Shown here in pieces: positions 20,422 through 64,000 of a stretch of 64,000 bases of DNA. The notes below the pieces were generated by a model, which did no database searches, was not told where the DNA came from, and saw only the letters and a program-made list of their open reading frames with translations. The stretch comes from Microgenomates group bacterium Gr01-1014_16 (GTDB lineage: Bacteria; Patescibacteriota; Microgenomatia; CAZETR01; Amesbacteraceae). The position numbers and the translations under genes are program-made. The stretch lies in NCBI GenBank assembly GCA_007376345.1, contig VMGA01000002.1, forward strand, positions 8,309-72,308, in the 5' to 3' direction. Position 1 is the first letter of the stretch, and every line of letters starts with the position of its first letter.

Positions 20422-20422
20422 C

Positions 20423-21933: not shown

Positions 21934-21951
21934 AAAAAATTCCTTATTGCA

Positions 21952-21976
21952 CCCCTCTCCTAGACTAGGAGAGGGG
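21952..21976 (+). promoter_or_regulatory. Perfect 10-bp-stem hairpin CCCCTCTCCT-agact-AGGAGAGGGG, whose 3' arm is an SD-like AGGAGA, upstream of a pilin-like gene
   Basis: Read directly from the sequence. An in-frame GTG at 21983, within GGGTGAGGT, lies 7 nt after the hairpin. Confidence 0.6.
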
Positions 21977-21982
21977 ACGGGG

Positions 21983-23926
21983 GTGAGGTATTGGGAAAAG
22001 ATGGGGTTGCATAGGGGCCAATCCCTGGTCGAAATCATCCTGGCCATGGGCCTGGCCGCCGTTCTCCTCCCGGCACTTTTGACCGGCCTGGTTACGACCC
22101 GCGAAGGCAAAGCCCAACAAAACCAAAGATTGGAAGCATCTGCCTATCTCAAAGAAGCCCAGGAGGCCGTCCGCTCCGTTCGGGAAAAAGGCTGGGCCAA
22201 CGTCGTCCCTACCGGTACTTACCATCCCGTCCTCTCCGGTTCCTCCTGGTCTCTGGCGGCCGGGACCGATTCTCCGGGCGGGTTTACCCGTTCGCTGGTC
22301 GTCTCCGATGTTTTCCGTGACGCTGCGGGAAATATTGTCTCCTCCGGCGGCAGTCCCGACCCCTCCACCCGCCAGGTAACCACAACCGTCAGTTGGGACA
22401 CCCCTACTGCCTCCTCCGTCACTTCCGCTTTTTATCTCACTCGTTATTTGGACAATTTGACTCACGTTGAAACACTCCAATCTGAATTTGACGCCGGTAC
22501 CAAAACCGGAACCTCTACTTCCAACTCCTCCGGTGGAGAAGTGCTTTTGGGTGCTGGCGGATATGGCAACTGGTGCGAACCCAACCTCAACCTTTCTTCT
22601 CTCGACTTACCTAAAAACGGTGTGGCCAATGCCATTTCGGCAATCGTTGGCCGGGCCTTTGCCGGCACCGGTGAAAACGCTTCCGGTGTCTCTTTTGCCA
22701 ACGTCCAAATTACCAATGCAGACCCTCCCGTTCCTTCGGTTTTGGGGACTTATAACGGCTTCAAAACCAACGGCATTTTCGGCGAAACCGATTACGCTTA
22801 TTTGGCCACCGACAATAACTCCAAAGAAGTCGAAATAATTAATCTCACCACCAACCCCTACTCCGAAGCCGGCTGGTTCAACACTACCATCCTCGGTTTT
22901 CCCGTTAACGCCGATGCCACTGCCGTCTACGTATCCGGCAATCGCGGCTACGTCACCGCCGGCTCCTGGCTCTATGTCTTTGACTTATCCAGCAAATCCG
23001 GTTCCCGCCCTCCGGTAGGTTTCCCCCACCTGTTAGTTGGTACTGGGACCAGCATCGTTGTTTCCGGCAACTACGCCTTCGTCTCCGTCTCCGGTTCCCC
23101 CATCGAAATGCAAATTATCGATGTTTCTAATCCCTGGAGTATTTTCCAGGCCGGCTACGCCGATGTCAACGGCCAGGACGGCAAGCACGTTTTTATCAAC
23201 TCCACCGCCACCAGGGCGTATCTTGTCACCAACGCCTCCGCCTCCCTGGCCGAGTTTTTTATTATTAATACTTCTTCCAAATCCGGCTCCCGCCCCACAA
23301 TTTCTAGCTACGACGCCAACGGCATGAACCCCAAAGACCTGGCGGTAGTCACCGGAAATAAAGCCATCATAGTTGGCTCCGGGGCAGAGGAGTACCAGGT
23401 CATAGATATTGCCGATGAAACACAACCTGTTCGCTGCGGCGGCCTGAATCTGGACACCGGTGTAAATGGGATAGCCTCCGTTTTGGAGCCCGACGGGGAC
23501 GCTTTCTCTTATATTATTACCGGGGATGCCTCTTCCGAGTTCAAGATCATCGAGGGCGGTCCGGGTGGCCAATATTCCACTTCCGGCACTTTCGAGTCAG
23601 CCACTTTTCCTGACGTCGGTTACTCGACCGCTTTTAATTACATGTCTTATACCGCAACCGTTCCGGCCAATACTACTCTCCAGTTGCAAGTCGCCGGCGC
23701 CGACCAAGTTTCCGGCAGTTGTCCCTCTTCCGGTTACGTCTTCCTGGGCCCCGATGGGACCAGTAATAAATTCTTCTCTGCTACCGGCGGTCCGATACCC
23801 CTTAACGACGACGGCACCGGCTACGAAAATCCCGCCCGCTGCCTCCGCTACAAAGCCTATCTATCCACTACCGATACCTTCGCCAGCCCCGTATTAAATG
23901 ATGTAACAGTCAATTATTCACCGTGA
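21983..23926 (+). CDS. Large pilin-like protein with a prepilin N-terminal domain (about 640 aa)
   Basis: Translation from GTG 21983 gives (M)RYWEKMGLHRG|QSLVEIILAMGLAAVLL, and the ATG alternative is at 22001. A class III signal peptide is followed by a long Ser/Thr/Gly-rich beta-rich body. The track ORF from 21809 overlaps the preceding gene. Confidence 0.55.
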   Translation: MRYWEKMGLHRGQSLVEIILAMGLAAVLLPALLTGLVTTREGKAQQNQRLEASAYLKEAQEAVRSVREKGWANVVPTGTYHPVLSGSSWSLAAGTDSPGGFTRSLVVSDVFRDAAGNIVSSGGSPDPSTRQVTTTVSWDTPTASSVTSAFYLTRYLDNLTHVETLQSEFDAGTKTGTSTSNSSGGEVLLGAGGYGNWCEPNLNLSSLDLPKNGVANAISAIVGRAFAGTGENASGVSFANVQITNADPPVPSVLGTYNGFKTNGIFGETDYAYLATDNNSKEVEIINLTTNPYSEAGWFNTTILGFPVNADATAVYVSGNRGYVTAGSWLYVFDLSSKSGSRPPVGFPHLLVGTGTSIVVSGNYAFVSVSGSPIEMQIIDVSNPWSIFQAGYADVNGQDGKHVFINSTATRAYLVTNASASLAEFFIINTSSKSGSRPTISSYDANGMNPKDLAVVTGNKAIIVGSGAEEYQVIDIADETQPVRCGGLNLDTGVNGIASVLEPDGDAFSYIITGDASSEFKIIEGGPGGQYSTSGTFESATFPDVGYSTAFNYMSYTATVPANTTLQLQVAGADQVSGSCPSSGYVFLGPDGTSNKFFSATGGPIPLNDDGTGYENPARCLRYKAYLSTTDTFASPVLNDVTVNYSP

Positions 23927-23946
23927 AAATAAATATTTTCCATTTC

Positions 23947-23969
23947 CCCTCTCCTGAATCAGGAGAGGG
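23947..23969 (+). promoter_or_regulatory. Second copy of the hairpin CCCTCTCCT-gaatc-AGGAGAGGG upstream of the next pilin-like gene
   Basis: A 9-bp stem. An in-frame GTG at 23977, within the same GGGTGAGGT context, lies 7 nt after the stem. Same architecture as 21952-21985. Confidence 0.6.
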
Positions 23970-23976
23970 ATCAAGG

Positions 23977-24456
23977 GTGAGGTTCAGGGCGGGTGAGGTA
24001 TGTCGTGGTTTTACATTAATCGAAATCCTCATCTACATGGGTCTTATGGCCGCTTTGATCACCGTTTTGACCAACGTCTTTGTCACAGTTTTGGAAACCC
24101 AGCTCGAATCCTCCTCCGTTTCGGTCGTGGAAATCGACGGCCGCTACGTTTTATCCCGACTGATCTATGACATTCACCGAGCTACCAGTATTACTACCCC
24201 TGCTGTAGCCGGCCAGACTTCGCCCGGTCTGACTTTAAACATTGGCGGCCCCAATCACACTTACACGGTTACCGACGGAGTTCTGTATTTGGACGGTTCT
24301 TCCCGTCTGACAAGTATTGATACTTCCGTTTCCAACCTGTCGTTTACCCGCGTCGGCAACAGCACAGACAACGATACCCTGCGAATTTCCTTTACCTTAA
24401 CTAGCCTCGCCCAATCACAAAATTATAATTCCACCGTTAGTCTGCGTACCAATTAA
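23977..24456 (+). CDS. Prepilin-type minor pilin / pseudopilin
   Basis: From GTG 23977 the N-terminus reads (M)RFRAGEVCRG|FTLIEILIYMGLMAALI. No in-frame ATG precedes the prepilin motif. Confidence 0.55.
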   Translation: MRFRAGEVCRGFTLIEILIYMGLMAALITVLTNVFVTVLETQLESSSVSVVEIDGRYVLSRLIYDIHRATSITTPAVAGQTSPGLTLNIGGPNHTYTVTDGVLYLDGSSRLTSIDTSVSNLSFTRVGNSTDNDTLRISFTLTSLAQSQNYNSTVSLRTN

Positions 24457-24457
24457 T

Positions 24458-24826
24458 ATGAAACCCGGTCAAACATTAATTTTTTTACTCGTCTTCATAA
24501 CCATGGCCATTACTGTTACCACGGCTGCCACCTTGATCATTATTAGTAACTCCCAGGCCGCTTCCAAATTGGAGCAGAGCCTTACGGCCTACGCCGTGGC
24601 CGAAAGCGGGGCCGAAAACGCCCTGCTTCGTTTACTGCGCGACCCCGCCTACGCCGGAGAAACATTGACAATAGGCGGGGGCATTGCCACAATTAGTGCG
24701 ACGGGGAGTAATCCCAAAGTTATTTTGTCCAAAGGGGCTTATAGAAATTTTCTGCGCCAGGTCCAGGTCACAGCCAATTACGTCAGCGGAATTCTTACAG
24801 TGACCTCCTGGCAGGAAGTCTTTTGA
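24458..24826 (+). CDS. PilX-like minor pilin / pilus assembly protein
   Basis: An N-terminal TM segment followed by SQAASKLEQSLTAYAVAESGAENALL, which is the PilX_N-like pattern. Confidence 0.4.
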   Translation: MKPGQTLIFLLVFITMAITVTTAATLIIISNSQAASKLEQSLTAYAVAESGAENALLRLLRDPAYAGETLTIGGGIATISATGSNPKVILSKGAYRNFLRQVQVTANYVSGILTVTSWQEVF

Positions 24827-24827
24827 T

Positions 24828-25850
24828 ATGACCGCCCATCCTTTTATTGCCACTCTCTATCGGAATCGGATAGCCCTCTGTTCGCCGACAATCGCCCAGC
24901 CTCTGGAACTCAAATTCTCCGATGCTTCTATCAAGGATTTAGAGATAGTCAACCAATCGGAGTTGGAAAACCAGGTCAAGGCTTTCGGGTCCGCCCGCCA
25001 GCTTCACCCCGGGGAACTGATTTTTGTTCTCACCGCCAATGTGGTTTTTGAAAAAGACCTCTCCAAAATTCCCAGATCTGACCGTTCGGCCCAAATCCAG
25101 GCCTTTCTCGACTCCATTCCCTTGTCCAGTATCAGTCACAAAATATTCCGCGTCCAAAACGCCGAAAAGCTCATCGTCCTCAACCGTAATCTTCACGATG
25201 GTCTGAAAAAAGCCTTCGAAGCCGTTGGCTTTTCCGTCTCCGCCGTAATTCCCGGAGTCATGCTGGGGGATATCGGCGTCCAGGAATCAACCACCGCCGA
25301 ATCCTGTCGCGTTATTTCCAAAAAGATCGATTTTATCCGGGCCAATAGTTTCCTGTCCGACGAGGGAAATTTTCACCAGAAAGAAACCAAGTTCCTCAAA
25401 AAATATCAGCTGGCAGTCGTAGTGTTCTTTATCCTGGCTGTTGCCGGCGCCGTCCTCGCCGCCGTTTTTACTCTCCGTCCGGCGCCCCGGTCTAAACCCA
25501 CCCCCACCCTCACTCCCAAACCCACAACCCACAACTCACAACCCACCCCGCTTCCCACTGCTCCGGCCGAAGCCTCGCCCTCTGCCCTGACAGTCCAAAT
25601 TCTCAACTCCTCCGGCACTCCCGGTTTAGCCTCCAAAATCCAAAAACAGCTTACACCATTAGGTTACACCAATATTATCGTGGGCAACTCAACCGTTTTG
25701 TCATCACCATCTTCTGTTCTTTTTTCCTCCCGGGTTTCGCCTGCCCTACGCCAGTCTCTCCTCCAACTGCTTCAGATTTCCTCCGCCCGGGATAACCCCG
25801 CGCCCCAATTCGACATCATAATTACTCTCGGCAAGCAATCTACCCCTTGA
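24828..25850 (+). CDS. Membrane protein with a C-terminal LytR_C (LytR/CpsA/Psr C-terminal) domain, in the pilus operon
   Basis: A central TM segment (LAVVVFFILAVAGAVLAAVF), a Pro/Thr linker and a C-terminal VQILNSSGTPGLASKIQKQLTPLGYTNIIVGNS that is LytR_C-like. It has an ATGA-type overlap with the upstream gene. Confidence 0.4.
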   Translation: MTAHPFIATLYRNRIALCSPTIAQPLELKFSDASIKDLEIVNQSELENQVKAFGSARQLHPGELIFVLTANVVFEKDLSKIPRSDRSAQIQAFLDSIPLSSISHKIFRVQNAEKLIVLNRNLHDGLKKAFEAVGFSVSAVIPGVMLGDIGVQESTTAESCRVISKKIDFIRANSFLSDEGNFHQKETKFLKKYQLAVVVFFILAVAGAVLAAVFTLRPAPRSKPTPTLTPKPTTHNSQPTPLPTAPAEASPSALTVQILNSSGTPGLASKIQKQLTPLGYTNIIVGNSTVLSSPSSVLFSSRVSPALRQSLLQLLQISSARDNPAPQFDIIITLGKQSTP

Positions 25851-25876
25851 CAAATATTTTACCAAGTGGGCACAAT
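25847..25876 (+). promoter_or_regulatory. Candidate promoter of the major pilin gene
   Basis: TTGACA (25847-25852), an 18-nt spacer, CACAAT (25871-25876), then 10 nt to ATG 25887. Confidence 0.35.
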
Positions 25877-25886
25877 AGATACAGAC

Positions 25887-26360
25887 ATGAGAAAAGCCTT
25901 CACGCTAATTGAACTTCTGGTCGTCATCGGAGTCCTTGCTGTTTTACTCGCCATCACTCTTATTGCCATCAACCCCGCCCGCCAATTTTCCCAATCCAAT
26001 GACACCAAACGTTCCAGCGACGTCAACGCCATCTTAAACGCCGTCCACCAGTATGCTGCGGACAATAAAGGTACTCTCCCGGCTGGCATTACAACAACAG
26101 GAAAACTTATTCGACTTAGCAACCCCGCGGATCCGGCTACGGATGCTAATATCTGCGCCGCACTTGTTCCCACCTACTTAGCCGCTCTTCCGGTCGATCC
26201 TCTTACCAATAATGGAACCCCGATTACGGATTGCACGGGCGGAGTACCGCTTACCTACACCACCAATTACACCATTGTCGCTAGTGCCACAAACAACAGA
26301 ATAACAGTCACCGCCACGGCCACCGAAGTCGCGACAACAGATATCTCCGTCACCCGCTAA
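25887..26360 (+). CDS. Type IV pilin (major pilin candidate)
   Basis: MRKA|FTLIELLVVIGVLAVLLAI is a class III signal with Ala at -1, followed by a 140-aa Thr-rich body. The track ORF starts at an upstream GTG (25866). Confidence 0.6.
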   Translation: MRKAFTLIELLVVIGVLAVLLAITLIAINPARQFSQSNDTKRSSDVNAILNAVHQYAADNKGTLPAGITTTGKLIRLSNPADPATDANICAALVPTYLAALPVDPLTNNGTPITDCTGGVPLTYTTNYTIVASATNNRITVTATATEVATTDISVTR

Positions 26361-30665: not shown

Positions 30666-32456
30666 TTAGTTCGACACCTTCCGGTTTTGGCGGATGCGGT
30701 CCAGTTTTGTCAAAAACTTTTTTCGAAACCTCAAGTTCTTTGGCGTAATTTCCAGCAGCTCGTCATCGTTGATAAATTCCAGCGCTTGTTCCAGAGACAT
30801 TTTGACAGCCGGTGTTAGGACAGTTTTAATGTCCGCCGAAGCCGCCCGGGTATTGGTCAAGTGTTTCCCCTTGCACACATTCAGCTCCACATCATTTTCT
30901 CGGGTTCCCATGCCCACAATCATCCCCTCATATACTTCCTCTCCAGGTTCGATAAAAGTTATTCCTCTCAGCTGGGCGTTCTCCAGCGAATAGGCCAGGG
31001 CTTTCCCCCGATCCAGTGCCACCAACGCTCCGGGCCGGATATCTTCTCCCGCCGGCTCGGTTTCTTTGTATTGGGAAAACTGCCTGTTAATCACACTGGT
31101 TCCTTTCGTCGCCGTCAGTAAAATATTTCTTACCCCGATCATATTCCGCTGTGAAATCTCATAAACAATTCTGGTGTTACCTTTGCCGTCAGCTGCCATA
31201 TCCGACATTTTCCCTCGCCTTTTTCCCATTTCCACCGTCGCCACCCCCACGTATTCGTCCGGAATATCAATTATAACTTCTTCAAAAGGCTCGGTGTTGC
31301 CTTTAAAAATTACTTGCGGCCGGGATACCTGCGTCTCAAATCCTTCCCGGCGCAATGTTTCCAAAAGTATTGCCAAATGCAGCTCTCCCCTCCCGGCCAC
31401 TTCAAATTCACCGCCCCCCAAATCATTAAACTTCATTCCCAAATTAGTCGCTATTTCTTTCTCCAACCTCTCGCCAATTTGTCTGCTGGTTACGTACTTG
31501 CCATCCCGTCCGGCAAACGGCGAAGTATTCGCCCCTATTGTCATCTTCAGGGTTGGGTCGGTTACCGTAATCGTCGGCAGCGCCGAGGGCTCTGCCGGGT
31601 CGGCAATCGTCATCCCTATTTCCAGATCCTCAATTCCGGCCACCGCCACAATATCCCCCGCTACAGCTTCTTGTACCTCAATTCTTTGTATTCCCTGGCT
31701 GGTATACAACCTTTCAATATTAAACGACCCGTGGCCTACTAAAGTTACTCTTTGCCCCACTTTCAGCGTGCCTTGACTGATCCTACCTATTCCCATCTTG
31801 CCCAGGTGACTGTCAAAGTCCAGCGTCGATACCAGCATTTTCACTGGTTTATCCAAATCTTTCACGGCATTGGGCACTTCTTTCAAAATTATTTCAAATA
31901 ATGGTTCCAGGTTACCTGCCAGTTTATCCGGGGCCATCCCCGCCCGACCATCTCTTCCGACTGCGTAAACTATCGGAAAATCCAAATGTCCGGAATGCGT
32001 CGCCAGCTTCAAAAACAGCTCCTCGGTATCTTGCAATACTTTGGCCGTATTCGCATCTTTGCGGTCAATTTTATTAATCACAAGGATTATTTTTAGTCCG
32101 GTCACCAGAGCCTTTTCCAATACAAATTTCGTTTGGGGCAGGGGACCCTCCGCCGCGTCAACTACTAAAAGGGCCGCATCCGCCATATTCAATACCCGTT
32201 CTACTTCACCACCAAAATCAGCGTGCCCCGGCGTGTCAATAATGTTAATTTTTACCCCGTGATAATTAACAGCCGTGTTTTTAGACAATATAGTTATCCC
32301 TTTCTCTCTCTCCAAATCGTTGTTATCCAAAATAGTCGTCTGACTCATCTCCGCCTGGTTATCCCGAAATGAGTGAGTCTGTTTCAACATCCCATCCACC
32401 AGGGTTGTCTTTCCATGGTCAACGTGTGCGATAATAGCAATATTGCGTATGTCCAT
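30666..32456 (-). CDS. typA: Translational GTPase TypA/BipA
   Basis: NIAIIAHVDHGKTTLVD (G1), DTPGHADF (G3) and NKID (G4), with BipA-specific C-terminal domains. The start is at MDIRNIAII (32456). Confidence 0.9.
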   Translation of the reverse strand: MDIRNIAIIAHVDHGKTTLVDGMLKQTHSFRDNQAEMSQTTILDNNDLEREKGITILSKNTAVNYHGVKINIIDTPGHADFGGEVERVLNMADAALLVVDAAEGPLPQTKFVLEKALVTGLKIILVINKIDRKDANTAKVLQDTEELFLKLATHSGHLDFPIVYAVGRDGRAGMAPDKLAGNLEPLFEIILKEVPNAVKDLDKPVKMLVSTLDFDSHLGKMGIGRISQGTLKVGQRVTLVGHGSFNIERLYTSQGIQRIEVQEAVAGDIVAVAGIEDLEIGMTIADPAEPSALPTITVTDPTLKMTIGANTSPFAGRDGKYVTSRQIGERLEKEIATNLGMKFNDLGGGEFEVAGRGELHLAILLETLRREGFETQVSRPQVIFKGNTEPFEEVIIDIPDEYVGVATVEMGKRRGKMSDMAADGKGNTRIVYEISQRNMIGVRNILLTATKGTSVINRQFSQYKETEPAGEDIRPGALVALDRGKALAYSLENAQLRGITFIEPGEEVYEGMIVGMGTRENDVELNVCKGKHLTNTRAASADIKTVLTPAVKMSLEQALEFINDDELLEITPKNLRFRKKFLTKLDRIRQNRKVSN

Positions 32457-54447: not shown

Positions 54448-54749
54448 AAAAATACTTGGACAAGCTGGGAAAATTTGTTTCTATTGACGAGGCTATTATG
54501 TTCGGTTCTTCGTCAACTGGTACGGCTGGAGGTGACAGCGATATTGACCTACTGATCCTTTCCCGTGATTTTTCCAAATATGACCCGGATACAAGACTTA
54601 AAATTATCTACCGGGCCAGTGTGGGATTTCCTTACGACCTACACGCCTACGGCGTAACTCCGGAGGAATATGCTTCCGCTTCTTCTCTCACAACTTTGGG
54701 GGCCATTAGATCCACAAATCCTACACCCGTCTTCAAAAACCAGAAGTAG
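54417..54749 (+). CDS. Minimal nucleotidyltransferase (MntA-like antitoxin candidate)
   Basis: IMFGSSSTGTAGGDSDIDLLIL is the GS...SDIDL NTase motif. It overlaps the HEPN gene by 31 nt. Confidence 0.6.
   Translation: MDKTTLTTDIKKYLDKLGKFVSIDEAIMFGSSSTGTAGGDSDIDLLILSRDFSKYDPDTRLKIIYRASVGFPYDLHAYGVTPEEYASASSLTTLGAIRSTNPTPVFKNQK
54729..54748. repeat. Direct repeat copy 2, gtcttcaaaaaccagaagta
   Basis: See copy 1. Confidence 0.75.
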
Positions 54750-54758
54750 GTGGAATTC

Positions 54759-56012
54759 ATGAAAAAATTTCTTTCGTCACTGATAATTCTATTTCTTGTT
54801 TCTGTTACTGTTACTGTGCCCGCCGAAGCCGCAGGCGAAGGCCGGGCTGTTTGGTGGCAGTTCCAATCCATCGACACTATGAAATATTCCCGGGACATAG
54901 CCCGTGAAAAACTCAAGGATTCCTCTTTTGACACCTCTATTGATTTGCAGGTCAAAAACATCGCCGCCACCGGCGCCACTCATGTAGCCATTGCCACTCC
55001 ATATGACGAAGAATTTATTCCTTTTTTGACCCGCTGGGTAAACGCCGCCCGCAAACACAAGCTCAACATCTGGTTCCGCGGTAATTTTTCCGGTTGGGAA
55101 AACTGGTTTGACTATCCGGAAATTTCTCGGGAAGAGCATCTGGCCAAAACCAAAACCTTTATTACCAAAAATGCCGGATTATTTCAAAACGGCGACGTTT
55201 TCACAGCCTGCCCGGAGTGTGAAAATGGCGGACCGGGCGATCCCCGCCAGACAGGAGATGTAGAAGGTCATCGTCAATTTCTTATAGACGAATTTGTGAC
55301 CACCCAGCAGCTTTTTCGTAACATGGGGAAAAATGTCCGGTCTAATTATTTCTCTATGAACGGCGACATGGCCAAAGCCATCATGGACAAAGAAACTACC
55401 ACTGCCCTCGGCGGTATCGTGACTATCGATCATTACGTCGCTTCACCCCAAAAATTGGTCAAAGATATCCAAAATCTTGCCCATCAGTCCGGAGGTAAAA
55501 TAATACTAGGTGAATTCGGTGCCCCGATTCCGGATATTCACGGCTCAATGTCCCAGGACCAGCAGGCTAAATGGCTGAATGACGCTTTCAAGCTTTTAGT
55601 TTCCACTCCGGAATTAGTCGGCATTAATTATTGGACCAACGTCGGCGGGTCCACCCAGCTCTGGACAGAAAACTATGAGCCCAAAAAAGCCGTTGATGTC
55701 GTTACTTTCTATTTCTTTCCCAAAACCGCCCGAGGCATCGTGAATGACGTTTTCGGTTCCACCATAAAAAACGCACAAGTTTCTTCATCACATAAGACTG
55801 TTTATGCCAACTCAGCCGGAAATTTTCAACTACCATATATTGACTCCTCCGATCCTCTTTCCGTGTCTGCCAAGAATTATATCTCCAAAGAATACAATAA
55901 TTACTCAAGTGATAAAAACATCGAAGTTTACTTATCTCCTATCCGAAAAGGAATACTTTTTAGACTCAAACTCTTGACTTATAGGCTTCTTGGTCGTAAA
56001 ATACATGGTTAG
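54759..56012 (+). CDS. Secreted TIM-barrel glycoside-hydrolase-like protein (GH5-like, tentative)
   Basis: A signal peptide (MKKFLSSLIILFLVSVTVTVPAEA), and IILGEFGAP (a GExG nucleophile-like region) with CPECENGGP upstream. The assignment is by pattern only. Confidence 0.35.
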   Translation: MKKFLSSLIILFLVSVTVTVPAEAAGEGRAVWWQFQSIDTMKYSRDIAREKLKDSSFDTSIDLQVKNIAATGATHVAIATPYDEEFIPFLTRWVNAARKHKLNIWFRGNFSGWENWFDYPEISREEHLAKTKTFITKNAGLFQNGDVFTACPECENGGPGDPRQTGDVEGHRQFLIDEFVTTQQLFRNMGKNVRSNYFSMNGDMAKAIMDKETTTALGGIVTIDHYVASPQKLVKDIQNLAHQSGGKIILGEFGAPIPDIHGSMSQDQQAKWLNDAFKLLVSTPELVGINYWTNVGGSTQLWTENYEPKKAVDVVTFYFFPKTARGIVNDVFGSTIKNAQVSSSHKTVYANSAGNFQLPYIDSSDPLSVSAKNYISKEYNNYSSDKNIEVYLSPIRKGILFRLKLLTYRLLGRKIHG

Positions 56013-56514
56013 TGAAGCTAAAACTTCTGTTAGCTTCTGCCCTTTTCTTTGTCGCTTCGGCGACTTCTGCTGTACTTCCCCTTCCGGATCCGTCAAAGTC
56101 AGCTACGATTCCGGCATTCATGGCGTTCCCGGCGACTTGGGTGAGTACATCGGCAGTGATATCGTCTACACCGTCTCCGATACCACCCTAGTTCAGTGCT
56201 TTTGTGCCGTTTCGGGTTCCGGTATCCAAACCAACTGGTGGAGGGACAACAGCCTTTCCCAATCTCAAATCGACCAACTAGTTAGTGACGGCTGGATCTA
56301 TATTCCCGATGGTTCTGCCTGGGGCCTGGATTCTGTTCCCTATCTGGCCAAAAACAGTAGCTATAATTGTGACGGTCCGGCAGCTGCCGGGGGCGGACAG
56401 GTGCTTGGTTTAGCTACAACCGGTAATTCAACTCTTCTCTACACCATGCTTGCCCTCGGCGGATTAACTCTTATTCTGGCCATTCTCTCCCGCCGCCGGA
56501 ATCAACGTGCTTAA
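56012..56514 (+). CDS. Sortase-substrate-like surface protein whose signal peptide and body lie in different frames (possible frameshift or pseudogene)
   Basis: A GTG at 56012 opens the frame (M)KLKLLLASALFFVASATSAVLP, a clear signal peptide, which stops at about 56192. The overlapping ORF in the 55990 frame carries the body and the C-terminal sorting signal LATTGNSTLLYTMLALGGLTLILAILSRRRNQRA (LPXTG-like, hydrophobic, basic tail). A CCCC run at 56079-56082 is a candidate slip site. Confidence 0.35.
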
Positions 56515-56959
56515 ACTCCTCTCATTATTCTTCTTTGCTTGTTCGGCCTTTCTTATCTGGCAGCGTAATGTCCCATTACCCCCAGCGCCAGTTCCAACTT
56601 CACTTTCTCAACCTGTTTCACTCTCTTTACCGGAGCTGGGCATTTCTCTTCCGGTTCTGACAGAACCCCTTACACCCAAAGGCGTCACCTACGAACCTCA
56701 CGGTAACAACCTCGTCTTCTACGGCCACAACTGGCCAAATATTTTAAAGCCCTTTCAAAAAGCCCGGGTCGGCCAAACAATCATCATTGGCTACGCCGAC
56801 GGGTCGTCTAAACACTTCGAAATCAAAACTCTCTCCGTCGTCTCCGGCACTGATATTTCTGTCTTACAACCTACAACTTACAACCAACAACTAATTTTAT
56901 ATACCTGCACCGGCTTTCTCGACCGCGACCGCCTCGTCGCCACCGCCACCCCGATTTGA
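56507..56959 (+). CDS. Sortase family transpeptidase (short form)
   Basis: An N-terminal TM anchor, VFYGHNWP (His), LILYTCTG (the TLxTC catalytic Cys) and DRDRLVATA (Arg). It overlaps the substrate-like gene by 8 nt. Confidence 0.6.
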   Translation: MLKLLSLFFFACSAFLIWQRNVPLPPAPVPTSLSQPVSLSLPELGISLPVLTEPLTPKGVTYEPHGNNLVFYGHNWPNILKPFQKARVGQTIIIGYADGSSKHFEIKTLSVVSGTDISVLQPTTYNQQLILYTCTGFLDRDRLVATATPI

Positions 56960-56982
56960 CACCGGTGCCATAATTACTTCAC

Positions 56983-57447
56983 ATGAATATTCTGGTTGTC
57001 CTGGCCCTGACCCTGTTTTTGGCTGGCGGCTTTTTTCGCCAAACAAAAGCCATTTCTTCTCCTTCCGTTCCCACATCCACACCCACACCTTTCAGCTCGC
57101 CGGCCTTGCCTGCCGGCAGGCAGGAGCCAACGGCGGAGGCGGCCACCCCCATTCCCACTACTCCAGTTACAGTTACACCCCCGTCAGTTACATCGGATTG
57201 GCAATACCCGGGCGGCAGTCAAATTTCCGCCGGCGTTTACGAAAGTTCTGACCCCTCGGACAAAATAACCGATTGGTACCAGGACAAAATTAAGCAGCTC
57301 GGGTTAAATACCAAGACTTTTGTCCGCACCAAGACCAACGATCGCGTTCTCAACAAATTAGTCGCGGCAGGCATTTCTACAGAGATCAGGGTGGAAATTT
57401 CCAAAAATCCCTCCGACTCTTTAACCCGGATCACAGTCGACTATTGA
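56983..57447 (+). CDS. Hypothetical secreted protein
   Basis: A signal peptide followed by a Pro/Thr-rich linker. No recognisable motif. Confidence 0.35.
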   Translation: MNILVVLALTLFLAGGFFRQTKAISSPSVPTSTPTPFSSPALPAGRQEPTAEAATPIPTTPVTVTPPSVTSDWQYPGGSQISAGVYESSDPSDKITDWYQDKIKQLGLNTKTFVRTKTNDRVLNKLVAAGISTEIRVEISKNPSDSLTRITVDY

Positions 57448-57498
57448 CAACCCCTGATGCCTTGGATATCATTCGAACAAATATGCTGCCCATCATAA

Positions 57499-58131
57499 AT
57501 GACTACTCGTACCCTCAAACTCACCGAATTTTTTTCCTCTCTCCGTCGGTTGCGCCGGATTCCATTTAAAAAGTATCTTCCCCAATCTATAGTAGTTATT
57601 ACTGTCGCGATAACCCTTGGCCTCGTTGTCAAACTACTTACCCGCCCATCCCGGACCTCGTCTACCTCTTCAGTTCCCGCTTCCGATTCCCGGATTTCCA
57701 TTTTGGGCGCCAGAGCCTCCTCCCAGCTAAACCAAGAATTTTCCTTTCCTCTCAACTCTTCTGCCGGTTCTAAACTCACCGATATTAAATTCATTCTCGA
57801 ATCTGCCGAGCTCCGCGACGAAATCATTGTCAAAGGCAAACGGGCCACGGCTGTCCAAGGTCGGACCTTTCTCATCCTCAATCTCAAAATCTCAAGCGCC
57901 TATTCCCGGGCCTTAAATATCAACACCCAGGATTATTTCCGCCTGACCATGAATGACAAACCCGACCAGCTCTTGGCTCCTGATATTCACAACGATCCGG
58001 TTGTTGTCCAGCCGATTTCAACTAAACTCGCCCGTTTGGGCTTCCCCGTAAACGACACCGACAAAAATCTTACCCTCTGGGTGGGCGAGGTGGCCGGCGA
58101 AAAAACCCAGATCGACCTCAACTTGCAATGA
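57499..58131 (+). CDS. Hypothetical membrane-anchored protein (DUF4352-like beta domain)
   Basis: An N-terminal TM anchor followed by GKRATAVQGRTFLILNLKISS...DYFRLTMNDKPDQLLAP, an Ig-like DUF4352-style pattern. Confidence 0.35.
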   Translation: MTTRTLKLTEFFSSLRRLRRIPFKKYLPQSIVVITVAITLGLVVKLLTRPSRTSSTSSVPASDSRISILGARASSQLNQEFSFPLNSSAGSKLTDIKFILESAELRDEIIVKGKRATAVQGRTFLILNLKISSAYSRALNINTQDYFRLTMNDKPDQLLAPDIHNDPVVVQPISTKLARLGFPVNDTDKNLTLWVGEVAGEKTQIDLNLQ

Positions 58132-58322
58132 AAAAAACCTTAACCAACGAGATCCTTGCCTCTCTGGCTTCTGTGCAGGGTTACGGCAGTGTGGAAATTT
58201 TCGTTCACGACAGCAAAGTTACCCAGATTACCGTTAGAAATATCAAAAAAACCAACTCCCCGGTCCCAACTAACGGCCATCGCGTGAAAATGACTCTTGA
58301 CAAACCTATCTCATTATATTAA
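58128..58322 (+). CDS. Small DUF2292 (YezD)-like protein
   Basis: GYGSVEIFVHDSKVTQITVRNIKK matches the DUF2292 core GfGsvei.v.dgkvv.ie. It has an ATGA overlap with the upstream gene. Confidence 0.35.
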   Translation: MKKTLTNEILASLASVQGYGSVEIFVHDSKVTQITVRNIKKTNSPVPTNGHRVKMTLDKPISLY

Positions 58323-58382
58323 ACAACTACTCAACTAGTACAAAATAAATCTTTCTCTATTGGCCCTGGAGCTGGCCGCAAA

Positions 58383-58452
58383 CGGAGGCTTCTCTGTCCA
58401 AAGCACTTATTAAATTATAGGTGTATTTGGATCGAGGAGCCTCCGCTTTTTT
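58383..58452 (+). terminator. Long-loop hairpin followed by T6 after the DUF2292 gene
   Basis: cggaggcttctc (58383-58394) pairs with gaggagcctccg (58434-58445), followed by ctttttt. Confidence 0.35.
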
Positions 58453-58475
58453 ATAAATTTGGAGGAAGAAGTGCA

Positions 58476-58491
58476 CCCCTAAGCTTAGGGG
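58476..58491. promoter_or_regulatory. Perfect 16-bp palindrome CCCCTAAGCTTAGGGG, 35 bp upstream of the repeat-protein gene
   Basis: Read from the sequence. It is followed by aaagggggtga (SD-like) 12 nt before ATG 58527. Confidence 0.4.
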
Positions 58492-58526
58492 ATATTCCTA
58501 AAAAGAAAGGGGGTGATTATAGATAA

Positions 58527-59798
58527 ATGACTACATTTAGAAAACAAATAGTAGCTGCAGTTTCCGCCTCTGTCATGTTTTTAAGCATGGCCGCCCCGGT
58601 TTTTGCAGAAACTACCATAGTAATTTCCGGCAATGGAGCCAATTCGGATAGCAAAAGTGATGTCCAGTTTACTGGCGACACGACTGTTACCCAAACCAAC
58701 CAGGCTTCCATTTCCAACAACATTGACGCAGACGCTGATACCGGCAAAAACGACGCCAACCAGAATACGGGAGGCTCGGTTTTGGTCAAAACCGGTGACG
58801 CGACAACTGGTGTCAGTGTAGAAAACGTGGTCAACAGCAACCAGGCTTCTGTAGATTGTTGCACCGCTGGCGATACGGATATCGAAATCTCCGGCAACGG
58901 AGCTGATACGAAAAACGATGTCAAGCTCAAAAACGACGCTGACGTCTCTCTGTACCAGACCAACGAGGCTGATATTTACAACCGGGTTGATGCCGACGCC
59001 GATACGGGCAAAAACGATGCCAACCAGAATACGGGTGGCGATGTTGAAGTCAGGACAGGTGACGCCTCTACTTGGGTTGGGGTATCCAATACCGCCAACG
59101 CCAACTGGGCACAAATCGGAGACGGTGGCCAGGGCTCACTTTCCGCAAGGATTTTGGGCAATGGTTTCAATTCGGACAACAAAATAGATTTGGATTTGGA
59201 CAATGACACCACTTTGGTGCAAACCAATTTGGCGGACATCACCAACTACATCTATGCGGACGCTGATACAGGCAAAAACGACGCCAACCAGAATACGGGT
59301 GGCAGCGTTCTAGTCGATACTGGTGATGCCGAAACCGGTGTAGAAGTCGACAATTTGGTCAACTTCAACTGGGCCGATGTTGATTGCGGTGGCTGCGTCT
59401 TGGACCTTTTGGCCAAGGTAGCCGGCAACGGTGCTGATACGAAAAACGAGATCAAGCTCAAGCTTGATAACGATTTGGAAGTTTATCAGACCAACGTATG
59501 CGGTGACGAGGGACGGCCCTGGTTCGAACTTTGGGATTACCAAGGTTATGAAGAGGATTGTTCAACTCGCGTTGACGCAGACGCTGATACCGGCTCTAAC
59601 GACGCCAACCAAAACACTGGCGATCCGGAAGGGGATCCTTCCGTCTTAACCGGCGATTCTGCCTCGTTCGTCGAGGTGAGTAATTCCGGCAACGTCAACT
59701 CTTATGGAGTTGGTGGAGGAGAGTGGCCCGACTTTGATTTTGAGTTCAACCTTTCGTTGAACTTAAATGACTTGTTGAGCTTGCTCGACTTGATCTAA
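58527..59798 (+). CDS. Secreted protein built from four ~70-aa Asp-rich repeats
   Basis: A signal peptide (MTTFRKQIVAAVSASVMFLSMAAPVFA), then four repeats of the form GNGA(N/D)(S/T)..N....QTN.A.I.N..DADADTGKNDANQNTGG.V.V.TGDA.T.V.V.N. Confidence 0.6.
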   Translation: MTTFRKQIVAAVSASVMFLSMAAPVFAETTIVISGNGANSDSKSDVQFTGDTTVTQTNQASISNNIDADADTGKNDANQNTGGSVLVKTGDATTGVSVENVVNSNQASVDCCTAGDTDIEISGNGADTKNDVKLKNDADVSLYQTNEADIYNRVDADADTGKNDANQNTGGDVEVRTGDASTWVGVSNTANANWAQIGDGGQGSLSARILGNGFNSDNKIDLDLDNDTTLVQTNLADITNYIYADADTGKNDANQNTGGSVLVDTGDAETGVEVDNLVNFNWADVDCGGCVLDLLAKVAGNGADTKNEIKLKLDNDLEVYQTNVCGDEGRPWFELWDYQGYEEDCSTRVDADADTGSNDANQNTGDPEGDPSVLTGDSASFVEVSNSGNVNSYGVGGGEWPDFDFEFNLSLNLNDLLSLLDLI

Positions 59799-59864
59799 GG
59801 CTATATCTTGTGGGGTGGATCCGCTAGCACTTCAGCGGGACACCCTGCAAGTATAGAAAAAAAT

Positions 59865-61988
59865 ATGAAACTAAAAAAACTATTATCAATAATTGCCCTG
59901 ACGGCACTGTTTACAGTCCAGATTCTGCCTGTCTCTGCCCAGGAGGCTCCGCCCCAACCGCCTACTGCCCCCACCGCCCCGGTTGCGCCTACAGCCCCGC
60001 CCGCTCCTACTGCTCCTACCGCTCCTACTCCACCCCCGCCGCCCCCGCCACCTTTGCCCGCCGAAGCCTTGGCGGAGGAGGGTCCTTCCCCCACCGAAGT
60101 CCCCACTGCTTCTACCCAGTCAGAAGAGCCAACGAGCCTTCCCGAGGAAACTAGTGGCCAAACCCAGGACGGAAATTCAGGAGACACCAATATTACAACC
60201 GGCGACGCTAACAACTCCGGTGTAGTAGTGAGCGAGGCCAACAATAATTTATTGGCCGACTCCGGCCCCGGCATCCTGGAAGTGGTCAATGAGGGTAACG
60301 GTGCCGAGTCCCAAAATACCGGTTCAGTCACCGTAGCCGAGACGAACACTTCGGTTCAACAAAATGAAGCCGAGGTCCAAAATAATCTCGATTTAGGCAG
60401 CGTTACCGGCCAAAATTCAGCCTCTTACACTACCGGCGGCGACGCCAATATCAAAACCGGCGACGCCAACGTTTCCGGAACTGCCATTACCGCCGTAAAC
60501 ACCAATGTGGACGCCGTTTCCGTCTCCGAATTCAATATCGCCGACAACCACGTCGGAGACTATATTTTGGATTTTGCCGCCAACTGTGTCTCGGGTTGCA
60601 GCTCGGGTGATGCCGTCGCCAAAAATTCCGGCAATGGAGCCAACTCCGTCAACGACGCCGATATTTCCCAAGACGTAAATAACCTCGACTTCCAGTCCAA
60701 CTCGGCCACCGTCGGCAACTCCATGATCCTAAATGCCGACTCCGGCGCCAACCAGGCCAACTACCAAACCGGCGGGGATTCCAATATTACAACCGGTGAC
60801 GCCAACGTTTCCGCGTCCTCGCTGACTTTGGCCAATAACAACTTGAGTGGCAACGTCATTTACGGCGTAGTCAATATTTATGGGGACTTGATAGGGGACA
60901 TTATCTTTCCCGAGGAAGCCCTGGCCGGCTGCTGCGCTTCTTCGGCTACAGCTGCCAATATAGGAAACGGAGCTGATTCGACCAACACCGCCAACATCGA
61001 TTCCACTCTCACCGACTCCACCATCCAGAGTAACGACGTGGTTATCGAAAACACCCTCGTTCTGGACGCCGATACCGGTGCCAATAAGACTTCCGGCAAT
61101 ACCGGCGGCGACTCCGCCATTTCTACGGGCGATTCCAACGTTACCGCCCAGGTCTTAAACGTCGCCAATTCCAACATTTCCGGCGGTACCTGGTGGCTGG
61201 TTTTGGTCAACGAAGCCGGCCAGTGGATAGGCCGCATTTTAGGCGCACCCGTTGGCGCCAATTATGCCGGCTCGGCTGACACCCAATTCACAGTCGGCCA
61301 GTCCGGAGAAATTACCGCCGTCAACTCCGGCAACGGTTCCGGCTCCACCAATGATGCCAATGTCTCCCAAACCACGACTAACACCACGGTCCAGACAAAT
61401 TCCGCTACCGTCCAAAACGACCTGAAATTAACTGCCAACACCGGCGGTAATTCTGCTTCTTACAATACCAACGGCGATTCCAATATCCAAACCGGCGACG
61501 CCACTATCATGGCCAATATCGTCAACTTTGTGAACAACAATGTCACCGGCGGCGGCAAATTATTTGTCACAGTCGTCAACGTCTTTGGCAGCTGGCTAGG
61601 TGACTTTGTCACTCCCGGCAGCCATAAAACACCTCCAGTCGCAGAAGTTCCCGCACCCGCCCCAGAACCAGCTGTTGGCGGGGCCGAAATTCCTGCCGTC
61701 CAATCTTCTACATCTAATCCCTCTGATTCCTCTAATTCATCTAACTCCTCTCCTTCCGTTGCTTCCGTATCAGTTCAATCCCGCGTCATCCGCCGCCGCG
61801 TCGCCGGCCTTTCCACCTCTTTCCCTTCAGTCGAATCTCCAGTCCTCGCGTCCGAATCCGTTGTTTCTCCCGACCCCGGTCCCGCCCGCAATAAAGTTCG
61901 CATCAACCTCGCCTGGCTCCTTTTAGGCCTCCCCTTACTCCTGCCCGTTTACCTCCGCTTCCGCCGTCCCCGCATCGTCCAGGTTTGA
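59865..61988 (+). CDS. Secreted paralogous repeat protein with a Pro-rich linker, four ~75-aa GNGA.S...QTN/QNN...TGG..NI.TGDANV repeats and a C-terminal hydrophobic plus basic tail
   Basis: The start is at MKLKKLLSIIALTALFTV. The linker is QEAPPQPPTAPTAPVAPTAPPAPTAPTAPTPPPPPPPP. The repeats are separated by VVN..G.W.G.I segments. The C-terminus is LAWLLLGLPLLLPVYLRFRRPRIVQV. Confidence 0.6.
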   Translation: MKLKKLLSIIALTALFTVQILPVSAQEAPPQPPTAPTAPVAPTAPPAPTAPTAPTPPPPPPPPLPAEALAEEGPSPTEVPTASTQSEEPTSLPEETSGQTQDGNSGDTNITTGDANNSGVVVSEANNNLLADSGPGILEVVNEGNGAESQNTGSVTVAETNTSVQQNEAEVQNNLDLGSVTGQNSASYTTGGDANIKTGDANVSGTAITAVNTNVDAVSVSEFNIADNHVGDYILDFAANCVSGCSSGDAVAKNSGNGANSVNDADISQDVNNLDFQSNSATVGNSMILNADSGANQANYQTGGDSNITTGDANVSASSLTLANNNLSGNVIYGVVNIYGDLIGDIIFPEEALAGCCASSATAANIGNGADSTNTANIDSTLTDSTIQSNDVVIENTLVLDADTGANKTSGNTGGDSAISTGDSNVTAQVLNVANSNISGGTWWLVLVNEAGQWIGRILGAPVGANYAGSADTQFTVGQSGEITAVNSGNGSGSTNDANVSQTTTNTTVQTNSATVQNDLKLTANTGGNSASYNTNGDSNIQTGDATIMANIVNFVNNNVTGGGKLFVTVVNVFGSWLGDFVTPGSHKTPPVAEVPAPAPEPAVGGAEIPAVQSSTSNPSDSSNSSNSSPSVASVSVQSRVIRRRVAGLSTSFPSVESPVLASESVVSPDPGPARNKVRINLAWLLLGLPLLLPVYLRFRRPRIVQV

Positions 61989-62023
61989 TACATTTTCAAC
62001 TAAAAACATCTATTAAGTGACAG

Positions 62024-62051
62024 TTGACACGTGCTATAAGCTTTCTATAAA
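62024..62051 (+). promoter_or_regulatory. Sigma70-like promoter with the -10 box 10 nt before the ATG (near-leaderless)
   Basis: TTGACA (62024-62029), a 16-nt spacer, TATAAA (62046-62051), then 10 nt to ATG 62062. Confidence 0.55.
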
Positions 62052-62061
62052 ACTATAGGCG

Positions 62062-63426
62062 ATGCGCCGTCCTGCCCTCGGTATTCTGATTATTGTCATC
62101 GGAACTGTCTCGATTCTCCGCCTGACATCGGCCTTTTTCTCCGACACCGAAACCTCCTCCGACAACACTCTCCAAGCCGGCGAACTTGATTTAAAGATCG
62201 ATAATACAAGCTATTACAACGAGGCCTCCAGTTCAGCCACCACCTGGCCATCGGACAATCTTCCCGGCCATCTTTTCTTCGATTTTAATGATCTAAAGCC
62301 CGGCGACCGGGGCGAAGACACTATTAGCCTGTCAGTCCAAAATCCCGCCTGGGCCTGCATGAAAATCAAGATCACCCAAAACACCGACGAAAGTTGTACC
62401 GAACCGGAAATCATCAACGATCCTAGTTGTCCTGACACCGGCGACCTGGCTCAACAACTCAACTTCGTCTTCTGGGCCGACGACGGCGACAACATCCATC
62501 AACTTAATGAACCCGTTATCAAAGAGGGGACTGCATCAGCAATTTTTAATGACGATACCTGGACGTTGGCTGATTCATTGTTCAGTGTCTGGCCCACCCC
62601 TGGGCCTATTCCCGCCAGCGAGACCCGTTACATAGGTAAGTACTGGTGTTTCGGCATACTATCTCCGTCAGCCAATCCTCCAGGCTTCTCTTGTGACGGC
62701 CAAAATCTAAATAACTCCGCCCAGTCGGACAAGGTTATGGCCGATGTGGAATTTACCGCCATCCAATCCCGCCACAACCCCGGTTTTTTATGCAATGGCA
62801 GTATCACTCCCACCCCTCCCATCATCTCTCCCACTATCACCCCCACTCCAACTCCCTTAGCCTGTAACCAAGCCGACGTTATGCTCGTTCTCGATCGCTC
62901 CGGCAGTATCAACTCAACTGAATTGGCTCAGCTCAAAACCGCCTCCAAAGCCTTTGTGGACGACCTCGGCCTGTCTTCGTCCGGCATCCACGCTGGCATG
63001 TCCAGTTTTGCCACCTCCGGCACTCTTAACCACATTCTCTCGTCCAACTCAATCACCATCAAAGCCGCCATCGACCTGCTTGTTTCGGGTGGGTTTACCA
63101 ATCTCAAATCAGGCATTGACATAGCAGCCGGCGAGTTAGCCGGAGTTAACGACCGCCCCGACGGTTCCTCGCCGGATAAAATGATTGTGATAACCGACGG
63201 CCACCCCAACCGTCCCCTGCCCGAATCCACCGCCGATGACGTTGCTGCTACTTCCGCCGATGCGGCCCGCGCCGCCGGCTCCGAAATCTTTGTCGTGGGC
63301 GTCGGCTCCGACGTGGACGCAACATATCTCCAAAACGAAATTGCCGACGACGCCGGCCACTACTTCCCTATTTCAAATTACAGCGACCTGCAAACCGCGT
63401 TACAAAATCTCGACCTATGCGATTAA
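62062..63426 (+). CDS. TasA/camelysin-like (SipW-cognate signal peptide) protein fused to a C-terminal von Willebrand factor A domain
   Basis: The N-terminus LRLTSAFFSDTETSSDNTLQAGELDLK is the SipW-cognate-class signal / peptidase M73-like pattern AFFSDTE...N.f.aG.LdL. The C-terminus DVMLVLDRSGSI is a VWA MIDAS DxSxS motif, with further MIDAS residues downstream (TDG...). Confidence 0.6.
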   Translation: MRRPALGILIIVIGTVSILRLTSAFFSDTETSSDNTLQAGELDLKIDNTSYYNEASSSATTWPSDNLPGHLFFDFNDLKPGDRGEDTISLSVQNPAWACMKIKITQNTDESCTEPEIINDPSCPDTGDLAQQLNFVFWADDGDNIHQLNEPVIKEGTASAIFNDDTWTLADSLFSVWPTPGPIPASETRYIGKYWCFGILSPSANPPGFSCDGQNLNNSAQSDKVMADVEFTAIQSRHNPGFLCNGSITPTPPIISPTITPTPTPLACNQADVMLVLDRSGSINSTELAQLKTASKAFVDDLGLSSSGIHAGMSSFATSGTLNHILSSNSITIKAAIDLLVSGGFTNLKSGIDIAAGELAGVNDRPDGSSPDKMIVITDGHPNRPLPESTADDVAATSADAARAAGSEIFVVGVGSDVDATYLQNEIADDAGHYFPISNYSDLQTALQNLDLCD

Positions 63427-63496
63427 TTAAATTATTAAATTATTGAACATTGATTATTGAACATTGATTATTAAAGAGAGAGGGGGTGAATAACGA

Positions 63497-64000
63497 ATGA
63501 AGAAAATATTACTAGGCTTATTAGTCACCGGAGCTGTCGGCGGAGTGGCATTTTATGCCACCAACGCCTTCTTCTCCGACACCGAAACATCAACGGGAAA
63601 CACCTTGCAAGCTGGTGCAATCGATCTCAAAGTAGATAACACTTGTTACTACAATGGGCAGGCATGTACTCAAGGCCCTGATGATAGATTCTACTGGGGA
63701 GGACTACCCAATCATCCCAGCCCAACACCAGCCACAAATCTCTGTTCATGTACCTGGAAATCTAAAAATCTTGAAGAAGGCGATCTATTTTTTGATATTG
63801 AAGATATCAAACCAGGAGACTGGGAAGAGGACACAATCAGCCTAACAGTTGAAAATAACGAGGCTTGGCTTTGTGCAGACGTTCATTTAACAAGTGATGA
63901 CGACGTAACCTGCACCGAACCCGAATCTGAGACAGGTCTTGCCGACCCCGAGTGTAGCGCTCCAACGCCTTCGCCAGGTACGGGCGAACTTGCCGATAGA
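63497..64000 (+). CDS. Second TasA/camelysin-like protein, 3' end truncated by the window edge
   Basis: Hand translation from ATG 63497 gives MKKILLGLLVTGAVGGVAFYATNAFFSDTETSTGNTLQAGAIDLKVDNTCYYNG.... The SD gagagggggtga lies 8 nt upstream. There is no stop inside the window. Confidence 0.55.
   Translation, partial: MKKILLGLLVTGAVGGVAFYATNAFFSDTETSTGNTLQAGAIDLKVDNTCYYNGQACTQGPDDRFYWGGLPNHPSPTPATNLCSCTWKSKNLEEGDLFFDIEDIKPGDWEEDTISLTVENNEAWLCADVHLTSDDDVTCTEPESETGLADPECSAPTPSPGTGELADR

Follow-up and report, generated by a model that had tools for sequence, protein, structure and literature searches.

A candidate SipW-processed, TasA-like fibre operon with a von Willebrand A-bearing subunit in a Microgenomates bacterium

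Introduction

At the end of a 64,000-nucleotide stretch of the genome of Microgenomates group bacterium Gr01-1014_16 (contig VMGA01000002.1, positions 8,309 to 72,308 of the forward strand; hereafter the window) lie two adjacent genes, gene 1 and gene 2, whose products carry a signal peptide of the class cognate to the signal peptidase SipW followed by a domain akin to that of the biofilm-fibre protein TasA; in gene 1 this domain is fused to a von Willebrand A (VWA) domain. We consider it likely, at a probability of roughly 0.7, that the two genes open a conserved Patescibacteria operon of the order tasA-like-VWA, tasA-like, sipW and small tasA-like open reading frame (ORF), and that this operon encodes a SipW-processed fibre assembled by donor strands.

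Results

Two TasA-like proteins with SipW-type signal peptides

Gene 1 (62062..63426, on the + strand, as are all elements of the locus described here) is a complete ORF of 454 aa that joins a SipW-type signal peptide, a TasA-like domain, a Pro/Thr linker and a VWA domain. Its product is 100% identical to G01um101416_207, a hypothetical protein of the source metagenome-assembled genome, Microgenomates group bacterium Gr01-1014_16 (groundwater sample SRR8863434); its full-length homologues, at 44-78% identity, number more than 100. Gene 2 is truncated by the window end at residue 168 (63497..64000, the first 168 of 320 codons); the full 320-aa sequence, obtained from the window-identical contigs L001 and L090, is a TasA-like domain without an additional C-terminal domain, and its stop codon is at window-equivalent position 64459 on contig L090. 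An initial annotation, made from the letters of the DNA alone, had described two tandem proteins here and had quoted peptides from them that are correct to the letter (...LTSAFFSDTETSSDNTLQAGELDLK in gene 1, ...ATNAFFSDTETSTGNTLQAGAIDLK in gene 2 and DVMLVLDRSGSI at gene 1 residues 272-283). The start it gave for gene 2, position 63498, is wrong, as the frame from there does not translate the protein; the true start is 63497.

The same annotation had likened both N-termini to the SipW-type region of TasA and camelysin, and the two relevant profiles bear this out, if narrowly. Against Peptidase_M73 (Pfam PF12389, a model of 196 positions with a gathering threshold of 22.5 bits) gene 1 scores 22.7 bits over residues 5-87 and gene 2 scores 29.1 bits over residues 9-50. 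Against TIGR04088 (SipW-dependent-type signal peptide, curated cut-off 19 bits) gene 1 scores 21.3 bits, with the match spanning residues 22-42, while for gene 2 the 168-aa fragment reaches 21.0 bits and the full-length protein 19.9 bits. The signal peptide of gene 1 comprises residues 1-24 (MRRPALGILIIVIGTVSILRLTSA, 62062..62133), of which residues 3-24 are modelled as a helix, and that of gene 2 lies at 63497-63568. SipW would probably cleave the gene 1 product after A24, as judged by comparison with TasA, in which the mature protein starts at residue 28 (PMC9674648). The JGI label 'ribosomally synthesized peptide with SipW-like signal peptide' was rejected for these products, which are folded proteins of 320-454 aa.

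A SipW-type peptidase just beyond the window

As the initial annotation had stated, the window itself holds no sipW: a motif scan and a phmmer search for S26/SipW peptidases found none in it. A SipW homologue, which that annotation had suggested looking for elsewhere in the genome, is present in the source genome, where it shares an 82,131-bp contig with gene 1 (P0393, annotated 'signal peptidase, endoplasmic reticulum-type [Microgenomates group bacterium Gr01-1014_16]'), and was recovered by a search with the peptidase of the related locus L088. Its position could be read from contig L090, which is 100% identical to window 54575-64000 (blastn, ~9.4 kb) save for a 31-nt insertion in L090 and which extends beyond the window. 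On this contig the 454-aa gene, the 320-aa gene, sipW and a 193-aa ORF follow one another on one strand, and sipW (L090:10001-10699, window-equivalent 64544-65242, 232 aa) begins 85 nt after gene 2 and 544 nt past the window end. The encoded protein scores 97.5 bits against TIGR02228 (archaeal/endoplasmic reticulum (ER)-type signal peptidase I, cut-off 51.85), contains the SGSMAP catalytic box, and has near its C-terminus a third transmembrane helix, after which come a substrate-like ...SISYFIDRETSSGNQFVAA and a Pro/Thr tail. Because the source enzyme is of the L088 type and just 34% identical to the peptidase of locus L004, a search with the L004 sequence did not bring it up among the 120 matches listed. 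When JGI metagenome contigs were scanned for the exact 3' end of gene 2, there were 0 matches.

The 193-aa ORF (L090:10696-11277, window-equivalent 65239-65820) overlaps the sipW stop codon by 4 nt (ATGA) and is 81% identical in L088, aromatic N-terminus included; its match to Peptidase_M73 is below threshold (E 0.018) and runs from model position 42 on. By sequence it resembles a TasA-like body that has neither the signal peptide nor the donor-strand part, and its product is possibly a fibre cap or nucleator. Two stable stem-loops separate gene 2 from sipW (L090:9917-10000, window-equivalent 64460-64543; minimum free energy -37 kcal/mol, z = -2.9); no T-run follows them, and they may raise the level of the subunit mRNA over that of the peptidase mRNA. 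Two independent assemblies break nearby, L001 within the hairpins, 70 nt past the end of gene 2, and L085 inside gene 2.

The operon is conserved in Patescibacteria

A scan of one genome per GTDB species revealed a relative in 388 genomes; the 79 loci kept from it are all Patescibacteria by sequence relatedness, though some record titles are labelled otherwise. ORF calling and phmmer on 81 distinct loci placed a sipW-type gene directly after the last of 1-4 tandem TasA-like genes, on the same strand, in 71 of them, with a median gap of 75 nt (maximum 2,403 nt). In eight of the ten exceptions the sequence ends at most 1.2 kb from the last TasA-like gene, and L019 is the sole locus among the 81 that has 8 kb of downstream DNA and no sipW. 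Tandem TasA-like paralogues, two to four in number, are found in 72 of the 81 loci; in L004 and L002 an archaeal-type signal peptidase I comes after the second of them (TIGR02228, 102 and 80 bits). Moreover, sipW is fused in frame to an extra transmembrane helix and an FFSDxExS-type motif, then to a lamin-tail (LTD) or RTX domain, in 26 of the 71 loci, and these fusions tie the peptidase to the motif. Fusions or a third helix are seen in L004, L013, L046, L010 and others, where the peptidase is joined to its own apparent substrate.

A TasA-like fold preceded by a putative donor strand

Once SipW has cut off the signal peptide of TasA, residues 28-38, the first 11 of the mature protein, form the donor strand that completes the next beta-sandwich (PMC9674648). 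The corresponding post-cleavage segment, FFSDTETSxxNxLxAGxxDLK, is the most conserved stretch of the whole family. The putative donor strand comprises residues 25-45 in gene 1 (FFSDTETSSDNTLQAGELDLK, 62134..62196) and lies at 63569-63631 in gene 2; the gene 1 residues S27, D28, E30, S32, N35, G40 and L44 are nearly invariant (30-64 homologues). The first 14 residues after the predicted cleavage site, nearly invariant in sequence, have a predicted local distance difference test (pLDDT) score below 50 in the monomer model of the N-domain. This lack of modelled structure and this conservation are consistent with a role as donor strand.

The N-domain of gene 1 (residues 25-246, 62134..62799) was modelled alone with AlphaFold from 64 sequences (pLDDT 84, predicted template modelling score (pTM) 0.81), and the predicted fold is a TasA-like jelly-roll/beta-sandwich. 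Its only PDB match with E <= 0.001 was the cryo-electron microscopy structure of the TasA fibre, 8AUR (chain 8aur_A; E 1.7e-6, probability 1.0). Homology to TasA is supported by the N-terminal sequence motif, the modelled fold and the genomic context.

The N-domain family counts 1,683 representatives of 50%-identity clusters, and its subfamily motifs are DxKPGDxGEDTIS, TEPE, WxDDGDNV and QSRHN, together with several conserved cysteines. In each of the 150 best matches listed the domain stands at the N-terminus, the proteins measuring 208-992 aa, and its C-terminal partners include VWA, beta-helix, LTD and RTX domains. These architectures suggest that the TasA-like N-domain acts as a carrier of interchangeable C-terminal heads. 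The W-x-D-D-G-D-N motif (gene 1 residues 138-144, 62474-62494) is invariant in all homologues; in sequence, this acidic loop resembles the calcium-binding DxDxDG loop, and calcium-dependent assembly is reported for archaeal TasA-like filaments. The gene 2 orthologue of the closest relative (L088:2520-4232) has an extra C-terminal beta-helix (NosD-like) domain.

Gene 1 carries an intact VWA domain

The initial annotation had assigned a VWA domain to gene 1, and this is confirmed for residues 269-454 (62866..63423) by profile, fold and metal-site residues. Residues 272-446 match Pfam VWA (PF00092) at 69.4 bits (cut-off 23.8), and the metal ion-dependent adhesion site (MIDAS) is complete (D278-x-S280-x-S282, T346, D379) and invariant in an alignment of 30 full-length homologues. 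When the full-length AlphaFold model (pLDDT 79) was submitted to Foldseek, all matches were to the Rossmann-like VWA fold, with vWF A3 (E 1.6e-12, TMt 0.81) and TEM8 at the top, both at E about 1e-12 and TMt about 0.8, integrin I domains also present and the VWA domain of Mfa5, a tip protein of type V pili, at rank 39; a profile of the full-length homologues likewise gave VWA matches only when run against PDB sequences. The Pro/Thr-rich linker foreseen between the two domains is real (ITPTPPIISPTITPTPTPLAC, residues 247-268, 62800..62865), with pLDDT below 50 over residues 247-264, and its last residue is the conserved Cys268. Eight cysteines are conserved in the TasA-like/VWA protein, of which C268 and C453 flank the VWA domain and are both invariant.

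Translation signals and a promoter-like element

The two genes differ markedly in their ribosome-binding sites. Gene 2 has a strong Shine-Dalgarno (SD) sequence (GAGGGGGTGA, 63480..63489) that ends 7 nt ahead of its ATG, whereas none was found between the promoter-like element described below and the ATG of gene 1; the anti-SD duplex energies are -18.1 kcal/mol for gene 2 versus -1.8 kcal/mol for gene 1. This asymmetry recurs in orthologous loci, where the VWA-fused gene usually lacks an SD (median -1.45 kcal/mol, n=22), in contrast to the strong SD of the TasA-like gene that comes next (median -17.8 kcal/mol, n=23; Mann-Whitney p=1e-4). As gene 2 combines a strong ribosome-binding site with the lack of any further domain, we infer from sequence that it encodes the major shaft subunit and gene 1 a minor, VWA-displaying subunit.

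Ahead of gene 1 lies a sigma-70-like element (62024..62051) made up of TTGACA (62024-62029), 16 nt and TATAAA (62046-62051), 10 nt before the ATG. The initial annotation had called it a textbook promoter. Its sequence and spacing are exactly as claimed, but the -10 hexamer TATAAA is imperfect, and the orthologues do not conserve the element: no conserved promoter was found in the regions upstream of gene 1 orthologues. The exact TTGACA-N16-TATAAA arrangement occurs once in the window against 0.02 expected, and there are five matches to at least 11 of the 12 positions of the sigma-70 consensus against 1.46 +/- 1.33 in shuffles. A promoter scanner did not report 62024-62051, the reason being that the conserved T at the end of the -10 hexamer is missing. 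Placed 10 nt before an ATG that has no SD, the element, if functional, implies a very short or absent leader, and a leaderless or near-leaderless gene 1 mRNA would fit the missing SD. The four other 11/12 matches are at 6529-6556 (-), 57444-57472 (+), 18579-18607 (-) and 30802-30830 (+); the one at 6556 stops 8 nt ahead of a start codon, a near-leaderless arrangement like that of gene 1. Genes 1 and 2 are separated by an AT-rich spacer with a perfect 14-nt tandem repeat (ATTATTGAACATTG x2, 63439..63466), and this repeat could be an operator or an internal promoter.

Other surface genes in the window

Upstream of gene 1, two repeat-rich secreted proteins with ordinary Sec signals and no Pfam match are encoded at 58527-59798 (423 aa) and 59808-61988 (726 aa), the latter with a C-terminal transmembrane helix. 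In ~18 of the 81 loci homologues of this pair are found no more than 10 kb from the TasA/sipW cluster, on either side and in either orientation, and the two may be a cell-surface module that is inherited together. A separate surface-anchoring pair lies 5 kb upstream of the TasA-like genes (55990-56959): a 174-aa ORF ending in ...GLATTGNSTLLYTMLALGGLTLILAILSRRRNQRA, i.e. an LAxTG-like sorting signal, a transmembrane helix and a basic tail, directly followed by a sortase gene (Pfam Sortase, 48.7 bits). The window also contains a type IV pilus cluster (18745-26360) that encodes a T2SSE ATPase (418 bits), a T2SSF platform protein and two proteins with the prepilin motif (N-terminal methylation). 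As secretion of the Clostridium perfringens VWA protein BsaC depends on type IV pilus components (PMC11580942), one might speculate, by analogy, on a link between this cluster and the VWA protein of gene 1.

Discussion

We propose that Sec would export the products of both genes by way of their SipW-cognate-class N-terminal signal peptides, and that the archaeal/ER-type signal peptidase I encoded in the operon would cut both, probably after Ala24. Cleavage would free the near-invariant N-terminal segment FFSDTETSxxNxLxAGxxDLK, and this segment could then serve as a donor beta-strand that fills the beta-sandwich of the next subunit, as in TasA, giving rise to an extracellular fibre or matrix. 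In such a fibre gene 2 would provide the major shaft subunit, while gene 1 would provide a minor subunit whose MIDAS-containing VWA domain, held on a flexible Pro/Thr tether, may mediate metal-dependent adhesion to targets such as a host cell or a surface. The description of gene 1 as an adhesive fibre-tip or matrix protein, given in the initial annotation, is plausible.

Several observations weigh against this proposal. The PF12389 and TIGR04088 scores are marginal and cover just the signal peptide and first strands (the first 40-85 residues), the TM-score of the N-domain model to 8AUR is just 0.44, and a profile built from 25 gene-2-type proteins returned 0 matches at E <= 10 among all PDB chain sequences, TasA included. 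In C. perfringens, the TasA-like paralogue BsaB forms no long oligomers and BsaC is a secreted VWA protein (PMC11580942), so that membership of such an operon is no guarantee of incorporation into a fibre. Finally, the absent SD of gene 1 could be a mark of leaderless translation and not of low expression.

A generic export or stalk module would also be expected to occur with many C-terminal domains, as the N-domain does (in proteins of 208-992 aa), and the products might accordingly be processed by SipW without polymerising, as monomeric secreted or membrane-proximal adhesins in which the conserved motif is a mere recognition site for the peptidase. We consider this unlikely. Conservation reaches ~20 residues past the cleavage site, far beyond what a peptidase needs, and the conserved segment is disordered in the monomer model, like donor strands; the sole significant PDB fold match is the fibre form of TasA, and the 2-4 tandem paralogues in 72 of the 81 loci are reminiscent of heteropolymeric pili.

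That the N-terminal similarity is fortuitous, the proteins being ordinary Sec substrates of a housekeeping LepB-type peptidase and the VWA protein unrelated to TasA systems, could be argued from profile scores near threshold (E-values 1e-4 to 1e-6) and from the want of a PDB match for the sequence profile. The chance of this appears very small, given that the fold matches that of TasA, that sipW lies directly downstream here and in 71 of the 81 related loci, and that it is fused to the same motif in 26 loci. We attach next to no probability to the idea that the two proteins are camelysin-type (Peptidase_M73) metalloproteases, even though the matching Pfam family bears the name 'Camelysin metallo-endopeptidase': the match spans the signal peptide and first strands only, and the family name is regarded in PMC11580942 as a probable misidentification of CalY. 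Inspection of both sequences revealed no HExxH or other zinc-binding motif, and on this ground a metalloprotease identity was rejected.

The locus is a lineage-specific architectural variant of a known system and not a new kind, and is largely an expected relative of the biofilm-fibre systems of Bacillus and Clostridium. With tapA-sipW-tasA of B. subtilis (PDB 8AUR/5OF1) it shares an operon-encoded archaeal/ER-type signal peptidase with TIGR04088-class substrates, a jelly-roll/beta-sandwich subunit, whose donor strand in TasA is the segment right after the cleavage site (PMC9674648), and, probably, the pairing of a major with a minor accessory subunit. In contrast to that operon, sipW here comes after its substrates, the putative minor component is a full TasA-like domain plus VWA and is not TapA-like, and the host is an ultra-small bacterium of the Candidate Phyla Radiation (CPR), not a Firmicute. 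Sequence similarity to TasA is undetectable past ~residue 85, and the domain here is larger, with conserved cysteines and the TEPE, WxDDGDNV and QSRHN motifs.

The nearest characterised gene content is that of the C. perfringens sipW-bsaA-bsaB-bsaC operon, which encodes SipW, two TasA-like matrix proteins and BsaC (PMC11580942). The latter (CPE0517) is described there as a 70-kDa VWA protein, whereas the VWA domain here shares a polypeptide with the TasA-like domain; and sipW is first in that operon but third here. BsaA polymerises by donor-strand exchange and has an N35-E56-K74 isopeptide lock, in which the Asn belongs to the donor strand, the Glu is catalytic and the Lys is the acceptor (PMC11580942). 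In the present family N35 and K79 are invariant (30 homologues), and no conserved acidic residue was identified at the position equivalent to E56 of BsaA. The LKPGD motif to which K79 belongs is present in TasA too, where it is not known to form an isopeptide. Both window proteins match PF12389, whose namesake is CalY/camelysin of B. cereus. The N-terminus of CalY, ...FAFFSDKEVSNNTFAAGTLDL, is strikingly like FFSDTETSxxNTLQAGxLDL; unlike gene 1, CalY has no fused VWA domain, and its remaining sequence shows no detectable similarity.

Homologous clusters, known from annotation alone, are carried by haloarchaeal megaplasmids. On that of Halorubrum ezzemoulense (NZ_CP034941; L089, 483836-498969) a signal peptidase I gene comes after four TIGR04088-positive genes in tandem, of which two encode VWA domains. 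The N-domain there resembles that of gene 1 in the FFSDxE...NTLQAG.LDLK, DxKPGDxGE, TEPE, GELA and QSRHN motifs, but in the VWA protein that was aligned (L089:6959-8455) the VWA domain is inserted within the TasA-like domain and not appended after a linker. VWA domains are also carried by tip adhesins of pili, RrgA of sortase pili being one. The type V pilus protein Mfa5 (PDB 6TNJ) similarly combines a polymerisation/pilin module with a MIDAS VWA adhesin, a likeness of analogy and not homology, as the polymerisation modules and assembly machineries of VWA pilus tip adhesins are unrelated. Akin to the present system, the AbpA/AbpB bundling pili of Pyrobaculum have a TasA-like jelly-roll, donor-strand complementation and a proposed adhesin-bearing minor subunit (PMC9245690), although their locus has no dedicated signal peptidase and the sequences are far more divergent. 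PF12389 members in Patescibacteria have already been reported (PMC9245690); our literature search found no paper joining SipW with the CPR.

A more far-reaching model, which strikes us as rather doubtful, would make the TasA-like domain of CPR bacteria a universal polymerising display scaffold, in which varied heads (VWA, beta-helix, lamin-tail, RTX) co-assemble by donor-strand exchange and allow episymbionts to grip their hosts. SipW, with its YFIDRETSSGNQFVAA tail, and the translationally coupled TasA-like body, which has no canonical SipW-type signal or donor motif, would then act as membrane-anchored nucleator and fibre cap, and an N35/K79 isopeptide lock would be possible.

CPR bacteria (Patescibacteria) are thought to live attached to other cells, and their attachment structures are poorly known besides type IV pili. 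To our knowledge, SipW-dependent TasA-type systems have so far been characterised only in Firmicutes. Nothing known is overturned by the locus described here; what it adds is a predicted SipW-dependent TasA-type system encoded in Microgenomates, one subunit of which covalently bears a putative MIDAS VWA adhesin, and the same operon, with interchangeable C-terminal heads, is present in hundreds of CPR genomes. As the components are few (two subunits and one peptidase), tests by heterologous expression are feasible. If fibres do form, the operon would represent a compact donor-strand system that needs no chaperone, and a candidate host-attachment or matrix apparatus for the CPR.

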